Positions 2,736-42,953 of a stretch of 45,233 bases of DNA are shown here, in pieces. The position numbers and the translations under genes are program-made. The stretch lies in the sequence record OR594180; one strand, written 5' to 3'. The notes beneath the pieces were generated by a model that saw nothing but the letters and a program-made list of their open reading frames with translations, was not told the origin of the DNA and made no database searches. Every line of letters starts with the position of its first letter. Positions within the stretch are counted from its first letter, which is position 1. This DNA comes from Escherichia phage vB_EcoM_SHAK7693.

Positions 2736-2768
2736 AAAAAGGCCTCTTTCGAGGCCTTAGTTTTATTT
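2736..2768. terminator. bidirectional rho-independent terminator
   Basis: Stem AAGGCCTC-TTTC-GAGGCCTT flanked by A-run upstream and T-run downstream. Confidence 0.55.
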
Positions 2769-3284
2769 AAATCGCGCGGGCATTAACACCATAAAGGCCG
2801 TGTTTGAAAATTGTATTTTGCATCCTTTGGTTTGGTCCTGGAAATCGAAACGAGCAATTTCATTTTTGTATGCCTTAGAAATCTTGTACGCGTCTGCCAA
2901 ATAGCGCAGAGTGAACCCTATACTGTCGACAACACCCGGTGTGATGTGCGCCACGCGTCTCCAGTCAGGAAAGTTTCCTTCTACAACATCTACCGGAAGT
3001 GTACATATAAGCACACGATTATCGTCATAGAAAGATACACTGCCGTTGTCGTGGTTTACCTCTGCGTAGTTAAATTTAGAAGGCTCTCTCCCTTTGATGT
3101 CTATGAGAGTCCCTTTCTCAACGTTGGTCTTCACATTGTCGCAGAACAATCTATGACCGTCCGTAGACACTATCAATCCTTCAGGGTCTATGTAAAAAGC
3201 GTTCAAATAGTAGCGAACATCATTTTTAGCTCTGCATATTTTTGCCCCTACATACGCAGGGAAAGTAATTACTGTAGTAACCAT
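2763..3284 (-). CDS. DnaN-like protein (beta sliding clamp domain II plus C-terminal half of domain III)
   Basis: Motifs DVRYYLN, STDGHRL, GNFPDWRRV, SIGF..YL.D and C-terminal LMPARF match E. coli DnaN residues ~140-366 from memory; own promoter and terminator. Confidence 0.65.
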   Translation of the reverse strand: MVTTVITFPAYVGAKICRAKNDVRYYLNAFYIDPEGLIVSTDGHRLFCDNVKTNVEKGTLIDIKGREPSKFNYAEVNHDNGSVSFYDDNRVLICTLPVDVVEGNFPDWRRVAHITPGVVDSIGFTLRYLADAYKISKAYKNEIARFDFQDQTKGCKIQFSNTAFMVLMPARFK

Positions 3285-3311: not shown

Positions 3312-3340
3312 ATAGTACCCTATTATATTGGTGTCTGCAA
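3312..3340 (-). promoter_or_regulatory. class-A promoter (TTGCAG-N17-TACTATTCA) for DnaN-like gene
   Basis: Conserved element shared with five other loci; correct spacing to ATG at 3284. Confidence 0.5.
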
Positions 3341-3384
3341 ATATTATTTTTATACGTTACACTGGCGGTACTATAGGAGGGCAT

Positions 3385-4428
3385 ATGAGCTTACTTACAT
3401 CTCTAATCAGTCACCAGATATGGCTGCAACGCGCCGCATCCGGTGAAGTGAAAGACCTTACGCCGTTTATTCAGGAGATGCGGGACGAAATCAAACGGCA
3501 GGTGCTGTTATTCGGCGATGACGGGCGAAGCACCGCGCGACTGAATAAATTGTTACGTGACCTCGAAGAAGCACTAATGGGACTTACAGGCGACTGGCAA
3601 ACAAAGCTGACAGAAGACCTTAAGGAACTGGCGGCGTATGAGGCTGAGTGGAACGTAAAAACGCTGACCGCCAACGTAAACGCGGAATTTGTTACACCTA
3701 CCGCTGAGCAGGTATGGGCCGCCGCCGAGTTTCAACCGCTCTCATTAAGCGACAAGCCGGTTGATTTCACTAAGCTGATGTCAGGTTGGGGTGAAACAGA
3801 AGTTGCGCGCCTGGTAACCGGCGTTAAGATAGGCTTTGTTCAGGGCCAAACCACACGGCAGATTGTTAAGAATGTCGTAGGCGCTGGCGGACTGGCGGAC
3901 ATCTCAGAACGTAATGCAGCTACGGTAATCCGCACTGCGTTGTCTCACGTGTCCAACGAAGCACGCAACGAGACGTACCGCCAGAACGACGACATCATCG
4001 AGAAGTACGAATGGGTGTCCACCCTTGACAGCCGTACCAGTACGATTTGCAGAGCCAGAGACGGAATGACGTGGGAAATTGGTAAAGGTCCGATGCCCCC
4101 GGCTCATTTTGGGTGCAGAAGTACCACAGCACCAGTAATCAGTTCAGAATTCGACTTCCTCGATAAAGGCGCAAAACGTGCGGCTAAGGGCGCAGACGGA
4201 GGTACTCAAGTAAGCGCAGACACAACCTATTACGAGTTCCTCAAACAACAACCGGCGTGGTTTCAGGACCAGGCGCTCGGTCCTGTTCGCGGTAAGATTT
4301 TCCGTAACAGCGGTATATCGCCGGAAGAGTTTCGCGTAATATCTGTAGATGGTTTCGGGAATCCGCTCACGCTTAAGCAGATGGCGGAACTCGATAAACG
4401 TGTTGCTGATTATCTGAAAGGGGAATAA
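3385..4428 (+). CDS. head morphogenesis protein (Mu F / SPP1 gp7-like)
   Basis: Motifs TICRARDG and HFGCRS; RBS GGAGGG before ATG 3385; track ORF start 3328 overlaps promoter. Confidence 0.75.
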   Translation: MSLLTSLISHQIWLQRAASGEVKDLTPFIQEMRDEIKRQVLLFGDDGRSTARLNKLLRDLEEALMGLTGDWQTKLTEDLKELAAYEAEWNVKTLTANVNAEFVTPTAEQVWAAAEFQPLSLSDKPVDFTKLMSGWGETEVARLVTGVKIGFVQGQTTRQIVKNVVGAGGLADISERNAATVIRTALSHVSNEARNETYRQNDDIIEKYEWVSTLDSRTSTICRARDGMTWEIGKGPMPPAHFGCRSTTAPVISSEFDFLDKGAKRAAKGADGGTQVSADTTYYEFLKQQPAWFQDQALGPVRGKIFRNSGISPEEFRVISVDGFGNPLTLKQMAELDKRVADYLKGE

Positions 4429-4889
4429 TGATGGGCTTTTTCAAAGTAACTGATGTACCTGCGCGCCGCGTAGTCCAGTACGCCCGTGTGTCTGGCTCTG
4501 GCGAGAACGTGGTGTTTATTGAAGACGAAAGTGTACTAGGTACACCGGTAGATGATATGCCGTTTGCAGATAAAACCGGTATCGCACTCCCTGCGGCGGG
4601 TATGCTTTACGAGGTTCCATATCTGGCTGACGCTGGAGATGTGTATTTCTCTGTACAACCGCAGGGCGCTGAACTGGCGGACGGAAGTGCGACTATCACT
4701 GTCGAGGTTAAGGCAGGCAAAGCGCCATATGCATTTACCTGGTACAAAGACGGTAAGGAAGTGGTAAACGCCCCGGAAGAGGCTTTGTCTCTGACGGTTA
4801 ACGCGGTCGGCGAATACTTCGTTAAAGTTACCGATGCCGATGGCGTAGAGACGGTTAGCAAGGCGGCGAAGGTTACTAAGCCAGAATGA
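4428..4889 (+). CDS. structural protein with C-terminal Ig-like domain
   Basis: C-terminal segment YAFTWYKDGKEV...GEYFVKVTDADG resembles I-set/Big Ig-like fold. Confidence 0.5.
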   Translation: MMGFFKVTDVPARRVVQYARVSGSGENVVFIEDESVLGTPVDDMPFADKTGIALPAAGMLYEVPYLADAGDVYFSVQPQGAELADGSATITVEVKAGKAPYAFTWYKDGKEVVNAPEEALSLTVNAVGEYFVKVTDADGVETVSKAAKVTKPE

Positions 4890-4890
4890 T

Positions 4891-4920
4891 AAAAGGCCCC
4901 GTAAGGGGCCTTAGTTTTAG
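4891..4920. terminator. bidirectional rho-independent terminator
   Basis: AAAAGGCCCC-GTAA-GGGGCCTT then T-rich run. Confidence 0.55.
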
Positions 4921-5108
4921 TTAAGGTACGCGGCTCGCCCCGCCATATAACCAGCAAGATACATTTTAAACCACTCGTTACATTCTCCATTCTCGTAATA
5001 CGCCCCAATCTTCCACATTTCTTTTGCTTCGCGGTCAAAGCGGAAACGACCTTTACAGTTCTTCTCGAATGATTCCATGATTTCGTACCATTCTTTGGAA
5101 TATAACAT
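4917..5108 (-). CDS. hypothetical small protein (63 aa), antisense moron
   Basis: RBS AGGAGG before ATG 5108; own class-A promoter; shares terminator at 4891-4920. Confidence 0.5.
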   Translation of the reverse strand: MLYSKEWYEIMESFEKNCKGRFRFDREAKEMWKIGAYYENGECNEWFKMYLAGYMAGRAAYLN

Positions 5109-5134
5109 TTTTACCTCCTGTTTAATTTAACTGA

Positions 5135-5164
5135 ATAGTACCCTATTATGTTGGTGTCTGTAAA
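5135..5164 (-). promoter_or_regulatory. class-A promoter (TTTACA-N18-TACTATTCA)
   Basis: Near-identical to element at 3312-3340. Confidence 0.5.
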
Positions 5165-5215
5165 CTATTTATTTACGTATCCCAGTTATTCCACCGAATT
5201 GTAAATGTTGGAATA

Positions 5216-5258
5216 AACTATTCGAATAGTTGACTTTTCACTGAAAATGTGCTAAGCT
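5216..5258 (+). promoter_or_regulatory. sigma70-like promoter (TTGACT-N17-TAAGCT) overlapped by perfect 16-bp palindrome AACTATTCGAATAGTT
   Basis: Palindrome 5216-5231 is a dyad of the ACTATTC half-site found in class-A/B promoters. Confidence 0.45.
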
Positions 5259-5435
5259 CCACCTGAGCTTGTGAAGTATGAACAAGCGACCGCGGCGCGG
5301 GCGGGTAACGGAGCGGGACGTAAGTCCTGAGTGTAGTTACGCTGACGCGTTCGGAAGGGCCATACTCTATTGCTTGTGTAAAAAGTAACTGGTTTACTGA
5401 GATTACGCCGTTTCTATGTTTAAATGATAAGGACT

Positions 5436-5467
5436 AGCGCCCCGCTTTAAGGCGGGGCTTTACTTAT
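5436..5467 (+). terminator. rho-independent terminator
   Basis: GCCCCGC-TTTAAG-GCGGGGC followed by TTTACTTAT. Confidence 0.5.
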
Positions 5468-5482
5468 CGAGAAAGGAGAAAC

Positions 5483-5869
5483 ATGAATCTTAAAGCAACT
5501 GTCGTAGCGGGAGCATGTTTCATCACGCTGACTTACGCACACGGCATCTACCAGTATCGCAGCGGCTGGAACGAAGGCCGGGCGAATCTCGTTTCGCAGC
5601 AACAGCAGAAAGCACAGGCTGAGCTGACGAAGAAAACACAACGGCAGCAGCAGGATGAATCAAAGGCCGCCGCCGCTGACAACGAAGGCAAGACGAAATC
5701 AGAGGTGATTACCCGTGAAGTCGTTAAGTACATTAAAACGCCTGGCCGCAGCGTGTGCACTTTCGACGATGCTCGCGTCCTGCTCAAGTCCCACGCCGTT
5801 GCCAACGCCAATTCCATCCCCGGATACGACGATGATGCAGCCGCCGTGCAAACTGGTGCCGCCAAGTAG
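5483..5869 (+). CDS. i-spanin (Rz-like)
   Basis: N-terminal TM helix, long Q/A/K-rich coiled coil; o-spanin ORF embedded in +1 frame. Confidence 0.65.
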   Translation: MNLKATVVAGACFITLTYAHGIYQYRSGWNEGRANLVSQQQQKAQAELTKKTQRQQQDESKAAAADNEGKTKSEVITREVVKYIKTPGRSVCTFDDARVLLKSHAVANANSIPGYDDDAAAVQTGAAK

Positions 5870-5978
5870 CGACGCTGACGAGGATTTAGCTATCGACGTT
5901 CAGAACACCGAATGCGTACGGCAACTGAGGCTGAAAGTGTTCACGTTGCAGGATTACGTGAGGAATATTCTGGAATAG
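5715..5978 (+). CDS. o-spanin (Rz1-like lipoprotein)
   Basis: GTG start with RBS GAGGTG; signal peptide with lipobox LASC; Pro-rich PTPLPTPIPSP; overlaps Rz-like gene. Confidence 0.65.
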   Translation: MKSLSTLKRLAAACALSTMLASCSSPTPLPTPIPSPDTTMMQPPCKLVPPSSDADEDLAIDVQNTECVRQLRLKVFTLQDYVRNILE

Positions 5979-6060
5979 TTGCCTTGCATGTTGGAATAAT
6001 TTATTCTTGACATGTAAATCCGGGAGGCCCGGATTCCAACGTCCAGGGGACATACTGACT

Positions 6061-6762
6061 ATGAATCGTTTTTTACACTATCCGTTCCAGGAAGAAGCTG
6101 GGGCAGAAGATAAATCTGGCGGTGGCGACGCTCCAAAAATGTTCACCGCTGAAGAAGTTCAGGCGATGCTTGAGAAAGAAGTTGCCGGACTTAAGGCCAA
6201 TCAGGAAGCATTGCTGGCGGAGAAGAAAGAAGCCGCCCGTAAAGCAAAAGAGGCCGAAGAGGAACGTCAGCGCGCGCACCAGGAGGCGCTAAAAGCCGCC
6301 GGTAAGATGGACGAGTTCGAAAAGACGATTCGTAGCCAGTATGACCCGGTGTTAGCCGAGAAAGATGGTCGAATCACCAAAATGGCTGAGCGCATCCTCG
6401 GCAGCGAACGTAAAGCGGTGTTAGGCTCTTTCGCAGGTGATTTCATCACACCGGAAGCAGTAGACATTCTTGCTCCGTTCGTTAAGACTGAGTTTGAAGG
6501 CGATGACGTGGTTACTAAGTTTGTTGGGCCAGACGGCGGTGTAATCACGACTGACCCTGAACAGTTCCGCAAATACCTGCGCGAACACAAAGCGTTTTCG
6601 CATTTGATTAAAGCAAATGCAGCTTCCGGCGGCGGGGCTTCCGGTGGCAAAGGCGGCGGGGCCGCACCAGCGTTTAAAGACATGAGTGAAGCGGAGCGTT
6701 TAGCTCTGTATAAATCGAACCCTGCCGAATTTGAACGGCAACTTAAAGCCCTGAGGAAATAA
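6061..6762 (+). CDS. scaffolding protein
   Basis: Coiled-coil-rich E/K/A protein immediately upstream of major capsid gene. Confidence 0.6.
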   Translation: MNRFLHYPFQEEAGAEDKSGGGDAPKMFTAEEVQAMLEKEVAGLKANQEALLAEKKEAARKAKEAEEERQRAHQEALKAAGKMDEFEKTIRSQYDPVLAEKDGRITKMAERILGSERKAVLGSFAGDFITPEAVDILAPFVKTEFEGDDVVTKFVGPDGGVITTDPEQFRKYLREHKAFSHLIKANAASGGGASGGKGGGAAPAFKDMSEAERLALYKSNPAEFERQLKALRK

Positions 6763-6764
6763 TA

Positions 6765-7814
6765 ATGGCAATTACCACTATCGGCGATATCGTAACTGGC
6801 AACATCCCGGTCCTGGCGTCTTATATGACCGAGGACCCGGTAGAAAAAACCGCGTTCTTCCAGTCCGGTATTCTTACCCCTACTCCGTACGCCGCCGAGA
6901 TTGCCCGCGGCCCGTCCAACGTCGCTAACATTCCTTTCTGGAAAGCGATTGATACTTCTATCGAGCCTAACTACTCGAACGACGTATACCAGGACATCGC
7001 TACCCCGCGTAACGTGCAAACCGGCGAGATGATGGCGCGCGTTGCATACCTGAACGAAGGTTTTGGCCAGGCGGACCTGACTGTCGAACTGACCAGCCAG
7101 AACCCGCTGCAATCCGTAGCGTCCCGTCTGGATAACTTCTGGCAGCGCCAGGCGCAACGCCGTCTGATCGCTACCGCGCTCGGTCTGTACAATGACAACG
7201 TAGCCGCTACCGACGCATACCACGAGCAGAATGACATGGTTGTAGACGTGTCTGCTACTCTGGGCTTCGACGCAGGTGCGTTCATCGACGCCACCCAGAC
7301 TATGGGTGATGCGCTGATGGGCAACGGCGGAGAAGTGCTGGGTGCTATCGCGATGCACAGCTTCGTTTATGCACAGGCCCGTAAGCAGCAGCTTATTGAC
7401 TTCATCAAAGACGCCGACAACGACACACTGTTCGCCACCTACCAGGGTTACCGCGTGATTGTTGACGACAGCATGACCGTAGTCGACACCGGCTCTAGCC
7501 GTAAGTTCATCTCCATTATCTTCGGTAACGGCGCTATCGGTTACGGTGAAGGTTCTCCGTCCAACCCGTTGGAATACGAGCGCGAAGCGTCTCGCGGCAA
7601 CGGCGGTGGGGTAGAAACCCTGTGGACCCGTAAGACCTGGTTGCTGCACCCACTGGGCTACAGCTTTACCAGCGCGGTAATCACTGGCAACGGTACCGAG
7701 ACCGTCGCACGTTCTGCTTCCTGGCAGGACCTGGCGAACGCCTCCAACTGGAACCGCGTTGTTGAGCGTAAGCATGTACCGATTGCCTTCCTGGTAACTG
7801 GTGTCGGTGCTTAA
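6765..7814 (+). CDS. major capsid protein
   Basis: 349 aa after scaffold, followed by strong terminator; HK97-type by size and position. Confidence 0.8.
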   Translation: MAITTIGDIVTGNIPVLASYMTEDPVEKTAFFQSGILTPTPYAAEIARGPSNVANIPFWKAIDTSIEPNYSNDVYQDIATPRNVQTGEMMARVAYLNEGFGQADLTVELTSQNPLQSVASRLDNFWQRQAQRRLIATALGLYNDNVAATDAYHEQNDMVVDVSATLGFDAGAFIDATQTMGDALMGNGGEVLGAIAMHSFVYAQARKQQLIDFIKDADNDTLFATYQGYRVIVDDSMTVVDTGSSRKFISIIFGNGAIGYGEGSPSNPLEYEREASRGNGGGVETLWTRKTWLLHPLGYSFTSAVITGNGTETVARSASWQDLANASNWNRVVERKHVPIAFLVTGVGA

Positions 7815-12737: not shown

Positions 12738-12927
12738 TGTTAACTCTCTTAAATCGGGCTATGCCTGACTCGTTAATGCTGCCTATTTCAAAGAAGCTGC
12801 GATATTTAGGCGAATACATTCTTACGTCGCCGTTCTCTAGGGTGACCCCTTCATATACAGCGCCTACTTCGAATCCATTTTTCTCCGCGTACGGACTCAC
12901 ATCGGTGCATTCATACATATCTTTCAT
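12727..12927 (-). CDS. hypothetical protein (66 aa)
   Basis: ORF in antisense island, overlaps neighbours by a few codons. Confidence 0.45.
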   Translation of the reverse strand: MKDMYECTDVSPYAEKNGFEVGAVYEGVTLENGDVRMYSPKYRSFFEIGSINESGIARFKRVNSDK

Positions 12928-14054
12928 CCCAGCATCTCCGGTGAAATAGTTAAACGTGCGACCTCGCCATATTCGGCACTATAGGTAATTACATTTGCGC
13001 TACGGCCTGACATCCATCCACCGCGCGAGGCGTAGGCGTCTTTAGCCGCCAGGGTGCGGTGTTGCTCAACAATCATGTTACGGCTTTCCACAATCTTCTG
13101 ATGGTGGAGGTGGCCTACGTGGGCGTAGCTGTAAACGCTTTCGCCAAATGCTTTGCGGAACTTGGCAATCATAACCGGTTCGATAGCGTCGAATCGTGCC
13201 TTATGCCCGTGGTGAAAGAACAGCGTCGTTTTGCCGTGTTGCACCATCTTGTAAACATCTGGCGACGTATCGACGAACACACGAGGCTCATTGTCGTACA
13301 GCGTACTAAACATCTCAGCTAACCAAATCATTCCGCTTTCGTCGTGGTTTCCTTGCACGATAAGCAAGCGAACATTTTTATGCTTAACCAGCGCCATATC
13401 GACAACACGGCGGACCATACGAATCATGTAGCGGACAAGTTTCTGATAGCGAGTGTCCGCATCAAGGGCGTGACCGCTTGCAGGCGTAACGGCAACCAGA
13501 CTGTCGAAGTGCGCGAAGTCGCCCAGCAGGTTAATAACTCCAGTTCCTGCATCCGGCGCTTTCTGGAACGCCGCATCGAACCAGCGAGAAAACAGGTCTT
13601 CCGCAATCTTCATATCCCAGTCGTCGCCACTCTCGTCGGCCCAGGCCAGCATACCAAGATGGAAATCAGATACAGTGTAAAGATTGAGTAGTTTATCGTC
13701 ACGTTTGGTGCGAACGGCTTTAACTGGTACAACGGGAGTAATCTCCGACTTCATGCCTTCGATTACGGCTTTCATCAACTCGACCTGACGTTCAGCGTCA
13801 GTGTCTGTCTTAACCCATTGCAACTTAGTGTTGCCGAACTCGTCCACAAGCGACGACGTTCCTTTAATCTTGTAGCCGTCCGGGACAAGATGGCTAACGT
13901 CACGACCGTGACCTACGCCTTTCTTCGCCAGCTTCGCTTTACGGATACGAATAACGCGGTCTGAGATGCCGTATTTACGGGCGATGTCTACATTCTTCAT
14001 CCCGGCGTTCAATTCTTCCTGTAACTGTTCGTCGGTTATTTTCTTCTGGGCCAT
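12924..14054 (-). CDS. calcineurin-like metallophosphoesterase with N-terminal HTH
   Basis: Motifs DFH, GDFAH, GNHD, HHGH, GHLHH; N-terminal ~50 aa HTH-like (DIARKYGISDRVIRIR). Confidence 0.7.
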   Translation of the reverse strand: MAQKKITDEQLQEELNAGMKNVDIARKYGISDRVIRIRKAKLAKKGVGHGRDVSHLVPDGYKIKGTSSLVDEFGNTKLQWVKTDTDAERQVELMKAVIEGMKSEITPVVPVKAVRTKRDDKLLNLYTVSDFHLGMLAWADESGDDWDMKIAEDLFSRWFDAAFQKAPDAGTGVINLLGDFAHFDSLVAVTPASGHALDADTRYQKLVRYMIRMVRRVVDMALVKHKNVRLLIVQGNHDESGMIWLAEMFSTLYDNEPRVFVDTSPDVYKMVQHGKTTLFFHHGHKARFDAIEPVMIAKFRKAFGESVYSYAHVGHLHHQKIVESRNMIVEQHRTLAAKDAYASRGGWMSGRSANVITYSAEYGEVARLTISPEMLG

Positions 14055-14092
14055 GCTTACTTCCTCGTGTTTAGGATTTGTCCTATACTAGC

Positions 14093-14284
14093 TCACTTCT
14101 CTTTGACATTCGAGTTACAAGCCCAGATTAAAATAAATACCCACGGCAACAGAATCCAGCCAAGAAACAGGTTCGCCATGAATATCGCCAACTTCGCTTT
14201 ATGGTTGCGCATATGGGCTACTAAAAACGGGATAAAATAAACTAAAACGATAATGATTAAGAAGAACATAGTAATACCTGTCAT
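14093..14284 (-). CDS. small membrane protein (63 aa, two predicted TM helices)
   Basis: Internal ATG with RBS AGGAG; hydrophobic segments; first gene after class-A promoter. Confidence 0.5.
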   Translation of the reverse strand: MTGITMFFLIIIVLVYFIPFLVAHMRNHKAKLAIFMANLFLGWILLPWVFILIWACNSNVKEK

Positions 14285-14325
14285 GGTGTAGCTCCTGTTT
14301 GAGTTAACATTGTTGGTGTAAGTGA

Positions 14326-14354
14326 ATAGTATCCTATTATGTTGGGGTGCGCAA
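14326..14354 (-). promoter_or_regulatory. class-A promoter (TTGCGC-N17-TACTATTCA) for antisense island
   Basis: Conserved element upstream of island. Confidence 0.5.
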
Positions 14355-14462
14355 GTAATGTGATAGAATAATTTTGCGCCTAGTGTCGCACACGAAAAGC
14401 GGGTGGTTCCCGTCTGGCGCATTTACCATTAACCTGTAACCTCTTAACCAAAGGATTAAAGA

Positions 14463-41882: not shown

Positions 41883-42191
41883 TTGGATAAATTTACTGAA
41901 ACTGTGACAGGCTGGCTTCTGGCTGCCGCACTAGCTGGCGGGGTAATAGGCCTACGGCAACACAAAGCCACTATTACTGGTCCTGTCGATGCTCTCTGTT
42001 TTCTCGCCACTGGATTTGCGTGCGCCGTATTCGGTGCACCTCTTGCCGCTCAATGGTTCGGTATCGCAGGTGAACGCGAAATAGCAGGCCTTGGGTTCAT
42101 CATTGCTATTCTCTGGATGCCCATCTATTCCCGCCTCTCCGGTATCGTCGCCGGAGAATATATCGCACGTCGAGGAGGCACAGATGAATGA
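41883..42191 (+). CDS. holin-like membrane protein
   Basis: Several hydrophobic helices; directly upstream of lysozyme; TTG start. Confidence 0.5.
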   Translation: MDKFTETVTGWLLAAALAGGVIGLRQHKATITGPVDALCFLATGFACAVFGAPLAAQWFGIAGEREIAGLGFIIAILWMPIYSRLSGIVAGEYIARRGGTDE

Positions 42192-42456
42192 GTTATTCTG
42201 GTTCGGTGGTATGCTGGCAATCGGAGGCGCATCGCTGTTTAATGTGTATCACCCCCGCGTGGACGACGGACTATTTGGCCGGGTGCTCTATATCCTGACT
42301 GCTATTGTCTGCGCCGCCGGAGGCATTCACCTGTTACAGGGCAGCATGTCGCCCACGTTGCCTGAGACCTTAATCACATTAGTTGCGCTGCGTCAGATTC
42401 GTCAGGCGTGGCTATCATATGGAGGATATAAGCGTGTCTCGAAACATTTCCGATAA
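42184..42456 (+). CDS. second lysis-cassette membrane protein (holin/antiholin-like)
   Basis: Two hydrophobic helices; RBS GGAGG; overlaps holin stop. Confidence 0.45.
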   Translation: MNELFWFGGMLAIGGASLFNVYHPRVDDGLFGRVLYILTAIVCAAGGIHLLQGSMSPTLPETLITLVALRQIRQAWLSYGGYKRVSKHFR

Positions 42457-42953
42457 TGGCTTACATTTCTGCGCCGCGTTCGAGGGATTCCGCGGAATTG
42501 CGTATCGTGCTACGCCGAATGAGAAGTACCTGACTATTGGGTACGGTCACTATGGGCCGGACGTAACACCAGGTAAGACCATCACCCCTGGCCAAGGCCT
42601 CCTGTTACTGAATCGCGATAGGCCAAGGCCTCCTGTTACTGAATCGCGATATGGCTAAGGCCGTAGCTGCGGTTGATGCAGCAGCACACCATTCGCTGAC
42701 ACAGGCGCAGTTCGACGCCGTGTGTGACCTGGTCTATAACGCCGGTGCAGGTGTGATTGCAGCTACTACTGGCACGGGTAAGGCGCTGCGTTCCGGTGAT
42801 GTTGCGACGCTACGGGCTAAACTGGCGCTGTTTATCAACCAGAACGGCAAACCGCTACTCGGCTTGCGCCGTCGTACAGCGGGTCGTCTGGCGCTGTACG
42901 ACGGTAAACCATGGCGGGAGGCAGAGGCTATTGGGCGCGCGGTGAAAGGTTGA
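42419..42953 (+). pseudogene. endolysin (GH24 lysozyme) interrupted by a 31-bp tandem duplication
   Basis: N-terminal ORF has EG..AY...TIGYGH; C-terminal ORF has QFDAV..L.YN.G lysozyme motifs; frames differ by +1 at duplication. Confidence 0.7.
42590..42651. repeat. perfect 31-bp tandem direct duplication
   Basis: GGCCAAGGCCTCCTGTTACTGAATCGCGATA at 42590-42620 and again at 42621-42651. Confidence 0.9.

Follow-up and report, generated by a model that had tools for sequence, protein, structure and literature searches.

Positions 5483–5978 of the DNA analyzed here, a stretch of 45,233 nucleotides hereafter called the window, very probably encode the two-component spanin of a Kagunavirus coliphage, consisting of an i-spanin and an o-spanin of the 'Jersey' families in the overlapped architecture. 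Sequence similarity and overlapped architecture place both proteins in these families, and the locus carries the features of a two-component spanin: an N-terminal transmembrane (TM) segment followed by a periplasmic domain, a lipobox without Asp at position +2, overlapping genes, and periplasmic cysteines. The Jersey families include the proteins of Jersey, SETP3/7/13, K1G, K1H, K1ind1-3, SE2, and others (Kongari et al. 2018, BMC Bioinformatics 19:326, PMC6139136), and their pair belongs to the overlapped class, in which the two genes share 155 bp and Cys45 and Cys67 of the o-spanin are constant (PMC6139136). The location of the spanin genes apart from those of the holin and endolysin has been explicitly published for Schulenberg (PMC6763661). 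Because both the gene family and its position among head genes have already been described for this phage group, the finding is a correct re-discovery and an ordinary one.

The first gene of the pair (5483–5869, + strand) starts with ATG, is preceded by the Shine-Dalgarno sequence AAGGAG (5473–5478), and encodes a protein of 128 amino acids. This protein matched phrog_2536, 'Rz-like spanin', over its full length (E 1.9e-54), and the gene is annotated as i-spanin in the record of phage Snoke, which also gives an N-in/C-out topology by TMHMM. A Pfam scan (E≤0.1) returned solely sub-threshold matches to Nucleoside_tran and DUF2514, the latter being weak (E 0.039). The most hydrophobic stretch of the protein is formed by amino acids 5–23 (ATVVAGACFITLTYAHGIY; codons at 5495–5551, + strand), the predicted TM segment, for which the Kyte-Doolittle 19-residue maximum is a modest 1.32. 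The predicted periplasmic part contains one cysteine, Cys92. An AlphaFold2 model built from the single sequence, of low to moderate confidence (mean pLDDT 62), comprises helices at residues 3–84 and 94–105, which makes a coiled coil plausible; for the Jersey i-spanin subfamily, two helices connected by a linker with beta strands have been predicted (Kongari et al. 2018, PMC6139136). We collected related loci by a protein-seeded locus search of IMG/VR viral contigs; a scan of viral contigs with the 14-mer GGAATAATTTATTC was dropped as it produced at least 120 matches, mostly to unrelated AT-rich sequences. The i-spanin gene was intact in all 47 related IMG/VR loci, encoding proteins of 118–129 amino acids that invariably carry an N-terminal hydrophobic segment. 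Amino acid identity to the Jerseyvirus members is 63–77%, and tblastn detected i-spanin matches in 626 records.

The second gene (5715–5978, + strand) starts with GTG, is preceded by the Shine-Dalgarno sequence GAGGTGA (5702–5708), and encodes a protein of 87 amino acids in the +1 frame of the i-spanin gene, with which it shares 155 nt. The protein matched phrog_5672 (E 2.2e-29) and phrog_1267 (E 2.1e-18), gave nothing in a Pfam scan (E≤0.1), and is annotated as o-spanin in Snoke. Its lipobox, L-A-S-C (amino acids 20–23; 5772–5783, + strand), fits the PROSITE PS51257-type pattern, with Cys23 as the predicted lipidated residue, and the residue at position +2 is Ser and not Asp. According to the Lol sorting rule, Ser at +2 of a lipoprotein predicts the outer membrane, and the o-spanin is therefore predicted to reside there. 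The mature part of 65 amino acids has 10 Pro residues, with a Pro-rich N-terminus, and contains two further cysteines, Cys45 and Cys67 (precursor numbering). A lipobox was found in all relatives examined, in the variants LNGC, LSGC, LTGC, ITGC, and LSAC, and no other ORF in any of the six frames of the 45-kb window combined a lipobox with a Pro-rich tail. In the SETP7 record, the o-spanin is cut to 47 amino acids, the GTG start and the lipobox having been missed.

Both genes are maintained together. By blastn, the 496-nt locus was matched in 489 phage records; the region is 93–95% identical in nucleotides to coliphages of the genus Kagunavirus, among them fFiEco03, Snoke, and NTEC3, and the locus is 93.8% identical to that of K1ind2 over all 496 nt. 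A +1-frame lipoprotein ORF follows the i-spanin gene in 47 of the 47 related IMG/VR loci. We also computed variability by codon position on 40 distinct relatives free of indels. In the part that encodes only the i-spanin, the third codon position of the i-frame was the most variable, with 78% of its sites varying, and in the part that encodes only the o-spanin the third position of the o-frame was variable at 78% of sites versus 17% at position 2 of that frame. The variability peaks change frame at the i-spanin stop codon, which indicates that the selected reading frame switches exactly there. In the overlap the i-frame dominates, which fits with the poorly conserved signal and linker region of the o-spanin that would be encoded there. 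A sequence-only reading of this region had proposed an i-spanin with a TM helix and an overlapping +1-frame, Pro-rich o-spanin with the lipobox LASC, and both proposals were confirmed: the hydrophobic segment is present in every locus compared, and the two ORFs are as proposed, the o-spanin having its lipobox cysteine at position 23 and 10 prolines in its mature part.

The description of the pair as 'Rz/Rz1-like' applies to function and layout and not to the sequence family. Homology to lambda Rz/Rz1 was undetectable (no Pfam Rz/Rz1 model above the gathering score), and neither protein had an NCBIfam model or a PDB relative above threshold, so that the family is captured only by PHROGs and by the classification in the literature. 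That the pair works like Rz/Rz1 is well supported by analogy. We found no published experiment on any Jersey-family spanin in the literature, and the functional assignment is based on the signals, the architecture, and the absence of any other spanin candidate in the genome.

To place the pair relative to the other lysis genes, we used the whole window, which corresponds to a complete Kagunavirus (Guernseyvirinae) genome. Position 1 is the A of the TerL ATG, TerS reaches the end of the window, and a terminal repeat was not found in the 45 kb; together these indicate a complete genome rotated to TerL, which renders distances across the junction meaningful. Two holin genes (41883–42191 and 42184–42456), with matches to phrog_2359/phrog_2508, and an endolysin gene of the phage lysozyme family (42434–42953) are located on the + strand, as the spanin genes are, and upstream of them across the junction. 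The spanins (5.5–6.0 kb) and the holins and endolysin (41.9–43.0 kb) thus do not form a canonical contiguous lysis cassette. The two loci lie 35.9 kb apart inside the window, and the endolysin end (42953) and the i-spanin start (5483) are separated by 7.8 kb across the junction. Both are contained in one continuous block of rightward genes that runs from approximately 39.9 kb through the junction to 25.4 kb.

The lysozyme gene of this genome bears a 31-bp tandem duplication (copies at 42590–42620 and 42621–42651), which causes a frameshift and splits the gene into two ORFs, one ending at 42658 and the other starting at 42651. The duplication has no counterpart in fFiEco02, and the alignments of all other listed close relatives were also fragmented over this lysozyme query; this is consistent with the duplication being unique to the window. 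Either the duplication is an assembly or variant artefact, or the genome is endolysin-defective.

Within the window, the spanin genes are surrounded by head genes. Upstream are the genes for the portal (1264–2733), a Mu F-like head morphogenesis protein (3328–4428), and a Hoc-like decoration protein (4428–4889), and the scaffold gene (up to 6762) and the gene for the major capsid protein (6765–7814) follow downstream. The order Mu F, Hoc, spanins, scaffold, capsid was found in 48 of 48 IMG/VR loci. In Snoke (MK931441), the same two genes occupy the same slot and are annotated i-spanin and o-spanin, and spanins are annotated in this slot also in K1ind2, SETP7, Smarc3, St162, and Oekolampad. The record of phage pink annotates the i-spanin alone; the o-spanin ORF is nevertheless present. 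The separation from the other lysis genes is likewise shared. In SETP7 (Jerseyvirus), the holin-holin-endolysin genes are at 39.3–40.9 kb and the spanins at 5.9–6.4 kb; in Oekolampad, a Dhillonvirus outside the Guernseyvirinae, they are at 42.0–43.0 kb and the overlapped spanins at 4.5–5.0 kb, directly after the Mu F-like gene. In both phages the holins and endolysin are approximately 7–8 kb upstream of the spanins. Comparison of these gene orders indicates that the slot among head genes is inherited and conserved in Guernseyvirinae and Dhillonvirus, and not peculiar to this genome. The sequence-only reading had correctly put the pair between head genes and the holin-lysozyme cassette at 41.9–43.0 kb, and it overlooked both the conservation of the arrangement and its earlier publication.

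A variable stretch lies ahead of the pair. Its length, from the Hoc-like gene to the first of two palindromes described below, ranges from approximately 70 to approximately 850 bp, and the reverse-strand accessory genes in it differ between phages. In Snoke and eight IMG/VR relatives, this stretch contains a gene for a 173-amino acid sliding-clamp-like protein (97% protein identity); in this window (2763–3284) and in the relative L160, the clamp-like gene instead follows the portal gene and precedes the Mu F gene. A near-identical bidirectional hairpin, AAGGCCyC-N4-GrGGCCTT, bounds each of the two alternative sites of the clamp gene in the window. A reverse ORF of 63 amino acids (4917–5108) was considered as a remnant of the clamp-like gene of Snoke and rejected (E 0.87). 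From these comparisons, the spanin cassette, which is shared with Dhillonvirus, seems to be a long-established and stable occupant of a plastic zone between the Hoc-like gene and the palindrome. In Yersinia phage P400, the endolysin and an adjoining homologous spanin are found together in this slot, behind the head-assembly gene, which suggests that a whole lysis cassette may occupy the spanin slot.

The cassette is bracketed by the palindrome GAATA-N3-TATTC. Exactly two exact copies are present in the genome (0.04 expected), GAATAAACTATTC at the upstream boundary of the cassette (5211–5223) and GAATAATTTATTC at its downstream boundary (5994–6006), the latter preceded by GGAATA repeats at 5962 and 5972. 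The pair is found at the same two positions in Snoke, SETP7, St162, and pink. Both palindromes were detected in 41 of the 46 IMG/VR loci with enough upstream flank, and at least one copy in 48 of 48 loci. Half-sites (GGAATA/TATTCC) lie beside both, in arrays at 5187–5223 and 5962–6006, and the window's only cluster of three such hexamers is at 5962–5998. Seven nt after the first palindrome and approximately 225 nt upstream of the i-spanin ATG, a candidate promoter with an extended -10 element was identified, TTGACT-N14-TGc-TAAGCT (5230–5258, + strand). A sigma-70 consensus scan detected no promoter excess in the region (2 found versus 2.4 expected), and this site is below the threshold of the sigma-70 tool; its designation as a candidate derives from conservation, since TnGACT and TGnTAnnCT are retained in SETP7 and pink despite a diverged spacer.

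Between the candidate promoter and the i-spanin gene, the + strand would produce a structured RNA leader (5284–5366), consisting of a long irregular hairpin (approximately 5290–5354) followed by the invariant sequence GGAAGGGCC. Compensatory changes were found in all three helices of this hairpin. In the leader alignment, 96% of the cells can pair, versus 30–47% with slid partners, and eight pairs have changed on both sides, versus 1–4 with slid partners. The presence of G-U pairs makes the structure specific to the + strand. A covariance model located a single copy in each Kagunavirus or Jerseyvirus genome, in every case before the spanins, and its search of St162, Smarc3, Oekolampad, and P400 found the RNA element absent. 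No match was obtained in an Rfam scan of 4800–6200 (E≤1). RNAalifold on MAFFT alignments places the inner helices of Kagunavirus and Jerseyvirus out of register; folding of individual sequences consistently gives a single long irregular hairpin. The leader overlaps an ORF of 36 amino acids (5278–5388). We rejected this ORF as a gene for a conserved protein, since of 49 distinct leaders at least 8 either lack it or carry a frameshifted or truncated version. In Jerseyvirus an unrelated ORF of 22 amino acids takes its place and the RNA pairing is kept. Other records assign a hypothetical protein of 36–39 amino acids to the 220 nt from the promoter-like site to the i-spanin ATG. A second, G+C-rich hairpin (5439–5458, + strand), terminator-like or involved in processing, ends 24 nt before the i-spanin ATG and also has compensatory changes in Jerseyvirus. 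The U-tract that follows it is weak and engaged in pairing with sequence upstream, so that this hairpin may be a processing or stabilizing element rather than a strong terminator. Neither the palindrome nor the RNA element has a copy near the holin genes or other late promoters, where a second copy would have pointed to co-regulation or to a put-like pair, and the promoter-like site likewise has no counterpart at the holin genes.

These elements tentatively suggest, although we consider it doubtful as a whole, that the spanin genes are part of an unannotated module bracketed by the palindromes, in which, behind the promoter-like site, an RNA leader of approximately 190 nt that comprises the long hairpin, GGAAGGGCC, and the G+C-rich hairpin would, together with the palindromes, regulate the expression of the spanin and scaffold/capsid genes. 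The leader could be a new cis-regulatory RNA acting as an attenuator, as a 5' stabilizer processed by RNase III, or as a put-like antiterminator, and the palindromes could be the operator of a phage late regulator.

A different proposal is that the spanins were split off so that outer membrane disruption is regulated alone, with a promoter or timing of its own that is functionally important. This is what the sequence-only reading took the split of the lysis genes to imply; its spanin pair and head-gene placement stand, and separate regulation is not established by the split, both loci being on the same strand and in one block. The proposal draws on the promoter-like site and palindrome (5211–5258), the covarying leader, and the hairpin that directly precede the i-spanin gene, on the RNA element being there only and once per genome, on the + strand terminator-like hairpins at 2739, 4893, and 5439 between the endolysin and the spanins, and on the lack of a palindrome copy upstream of the holins. 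A separate transcription start for the spanins is, judging from these elements, plausible but unproven. However, in a time course RNA-seq of K1B4, the only such study of Guernseyvirinae that we found, the lysozyme, Mu F-like, and capsid genes fall into one temporal class, a 'middle' class of 42 genes, defined at coarse resolution and in which spanins are unnamed (PMC12645636). Moreover, the second palindrome precedes the scaffold gene, which would make any such control common to the spanin and capsid genes and thus tie it to the latter rather than to outer membrane disruption. In the lambda paradigm, spanins accumulate passively under a restraint by the cell wall that ends with endolysin action; lysis timing thus needs no separate spanin control, and spanins are not the timing step in lambda or T4. 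Altogether, we consider it improbable that the spanins are apart for the sake of their own regulation.

Far less likely is that the pair belongs to another envelope system, such as a membrane protein combined with a receptor-blocking outer membrane lipoprotein for superinfection exclusion of the T5 Llp/Cor type, or serves as a head-assembly factor. The position among head genes and not lysis genes, and the lack of homology to lambda Rz/Rz1, would agree with such roles. Nevertheless, the combination of a membrane-helix protein and a +1-frame lipoprotein with conserved periplasmic cysteines and a conserved o-spanin C-terminus is a hallmark of two-component spanins, and without the pair the genome would be left with no spanin candidate despite a Gram-negative host and a canonical holin-endolysin system. 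In addition, the homologue in P400 directly adjoins the endolysin, and the genome already has an Imm-like superinfection immunity gene (14093–14422). Finally, that both ORFs are chance open frames without a product, for which their small size and nothing more could be invoked, has next to no probability and is already refuted by the PHROG E-values, the approximately 490 records and 47 of 47 loci in which they recur, the frame-specific variability, and the strong Shine-Dalgarno sites.

With the spanin assignment, and beyond the genes, signals, family membership, conservation, and synteny observed, we infer the localization, complex formation, membrane fusion, and transcription pattern of the two proteins. 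The lambda Rz/Rz1 mechanism that serves as the analogy is reportedly due to Berry et al. in 2012 and Rajaure et al. in 2015. By this analogy, the N-terminal helix of the i-spanin (128 amino acids) would anchor the protein in the inner membrane, with a mainly helical domain exposed to the periplasm. The o-spanin (87 amino acids) would be exported and lipidated at Cys23; signal peptidase II would cut it, and sorting would direct it to the outer membrane. Binding between the C-termini of the two proteins would produce a complex that bridges the periplasm, and homotypic disulfides may form through Cys45 and Cys67 of the o-spanin and Cys92 of the i-spanin. Spanin complexes would build up in late infection, with the peptidoglycan mesh keeping them separated. 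After the lysozyme has been released by the holins and has degraded the wall, the spanins would fuse the inner and outer membranes, thus finishing lysis. Most likely, the pair is co-expressed with the scaffold and capsid genes, through transcription that either starts at the promoter-like site (5230–5258) and passes the leader or reads through from upstream, and lysis timing would be set by the holins rather than by spanin transcription.

The assignment is of use for annotation, as many relatives label one or both spanin genes 'hypothetical' or truncate the o-spanin, and the arrangement illustrates that a spanin pair can lie outside the lysis cassette. Guernseyvirinae find wide use in phage therapy and biocontrol, and their transcription is essentially unstudied; the palindrome pair and the covarying leader before the spanin, scaffold, and capsid genes would offer a testable handle on their late gene control.

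Compared with known systems, the pair shows nothing materially different from the Jersey families, with which it shares the sequence family, the overlapped architecture with its 155-nt overlap, Cys45/Cys67, and the genomic slot; a minority of relatives (FSL SP-031, St162, and L166) have a 'separated' gene arrangement instead. It resembles lambda Rz/Rz1 in combining a type II inner membrane protein with an outer membrane lipoprotein encoded in the +1 frame, in the Pro-rich o-spanin, in the periplasmic cysteines, and in the presumed mechanism. Unlike in lambda, the o-spanin gene extends past the i-spanin gene and is not fully embedded in it, and the pair does not adjoin the holin and endolysin genes. 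The LysB/LysC genes of phage P2 are located in the lysis cassette. They are also overlapped, in that the o-spanin gene has its start within the i-spanin gene and its end beyond it (PMC6139136), but LysB/LysC belong to a different sequence family in the Kongari tables (PMC6139136). PseT.3/PseT.2 of T4 are the classical case of spanin genes unlinked from the holin and endolysin (PMC6139136), from which it follows that adjacency is not a defining feature of spanins; however, T4 has two separate, non-overlapping spanin genes, all of its lysis genes are dispersed, and it differs in family and genome type. The Dhillonvirus (HK578-like) pair Oekolampad gp05/gp06 includes a distant homologue of the i-spanin (tblastn E 7e-4 over part of the protein) and has an identical layout, with an overlapped pair that directly follows the Mu F-like minor capsid gene and precedes the capsid gene. 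It differs in its shorter proteins and in having neither the GAATA-N3-TATTC palindromes nor the RNA element, the leader being absent because the i-spanin start overlaps the upstream gene.

Exact GAATA-N3-TATTC palindromes occur twice in the whole genome against an expected 0.04, and the 2 copies (5211-5223 and 5994-6006) flank the spanin cassette on both sides, with additional GGAATA/TATTCC half-sites next to them at 5187, 5962 and 5972. The phages Snoke, SETP7, St162 and pink keep the palindromes at these positions; of the 46 related IMG/VR loci with an upstream flank long enough to judge, 41 have both copies. These palindromes may represent the operator of a phage regulator; alternatively, they may be a boundary repeat that takes part in cassette shuffling.

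The leader of the i-spanin gene (region 5230-5482) forms a structured RNA that is conserved and shows compensatory base changes; it includes a structured core (5284-5366) and a hairpin (5439-5458), and also contains a doubtful ORF (5278-5388). A promoter-like TnGACT-N14-TGnTAnnCT site is located 5' of this RNA, which is present in 1 copy per Kagunavirus or Jerseyvirus genome and has no match in Rfam. A small "hypothetical protein" is annotated at the leader in Snoke and SETP7, but this ORF is not conserved.

Annotation of the cassette itself differs among relatives. In several RefSeq genomes the o-spanin is cut to 47 amino acids or left out (SETP7, 6291-6434; pink) because its GTG start and its lipobox (LNGC or LTGC) were overlooked; the full-length lipoprotein ORF exists in both the SETP7 and the pink genomes. 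The likely start codon of the scaffold gene that follows is the ATG at 6061, as annotated in SETP7 (233 amino acids), and not the TTG at 6007, as annotated in Snoke. Upstream of this ATG lies an 82-nt spacer (region 5979-6063) that contains the second palindrome, a conserved ribosome-binding region (GTCCAGGGGACAT) and a hairpin (6019-6035, ATCCGGG-AGG-CCCGGAT) for which compensatory changes are seen in SETP7, St162 and Smarc3.

Gene content also varies on the upstream side of the cassette. A 173-amino-acid gene resembling the DNA polymerase III β clamp, 97% identical to its Snoke counterpart, is encoded on the reverse strand at 2763-3284, whereas in Snoke and 8 IMG/VR relatives the clamp-like gene is placed between the Hoc-like gene and the spanins. 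In the window, this second site is occupied by an unrelated reverse ORF of 63 amino acids (4917-5108), and near-identical bidirectional terminator-like hairpins (AAGGCCyC-N4-GrGGCCTT) adjoin both alternative sites (2739-3284 and 4893-5108). A further accessory island within the structural region is the reverse-strand gene pair at 12924-14422, in the tail-gene block. One ORF of this pair encodes a superinfection immunity protein similar to T4 Imm (Pfam PF14373, E 4.6e-13). The other showed a weak, sub-threshold metallophosphoesterase-like match; in SETP7 it carries the annotation DNA repair exonuclease.

In the endolysin gene, a stretch of 31 bp is duplicated in tandem (region 42589-42662; unit GGCCAAGGCCTCCTGTTACTGAATCGCGATA, copies 42590-42620 and 42621-42651), which is not the case in fFiEco02. 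The duplication produces a frameshift that breaks the lysozyme into 2 ORFs (42434-42658 and 42651-42953). Either it is an assembly or minor-variant artefact, or the genome is lysis-defective.

The spanin locus was also recognized in other phages. The 1990s-era record of Salmonella phage MB78 (X87092.1) spans the same region; its p11.5 CDS, which bears no functional name, sits in the spanin locus, and a ribosomal frameshift site is annotated for p26/p28 (scaffold) downstream. In Yersinia phage vB_YenS_P400 (2340-3909), a probable holin, an endolysin and a spanin homologous to that of the window lie 3' of the Mu F-like head-assembly gene; therefore, a whole lysis cassette can fit where Guernseyvirinae have spanins alone. 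Escherichia phage vB_VIPECOMC04 (PQ423993.1, 37823-38887) matched the spanin locus in 2 pieces spanning 1065 bp, and its spanin pair seems to have an HNH endonuclease gene inserted into it or beside it, an arrangement reminiscent of the T5/Shivani case described by Kongari et al. (PMC6139136).
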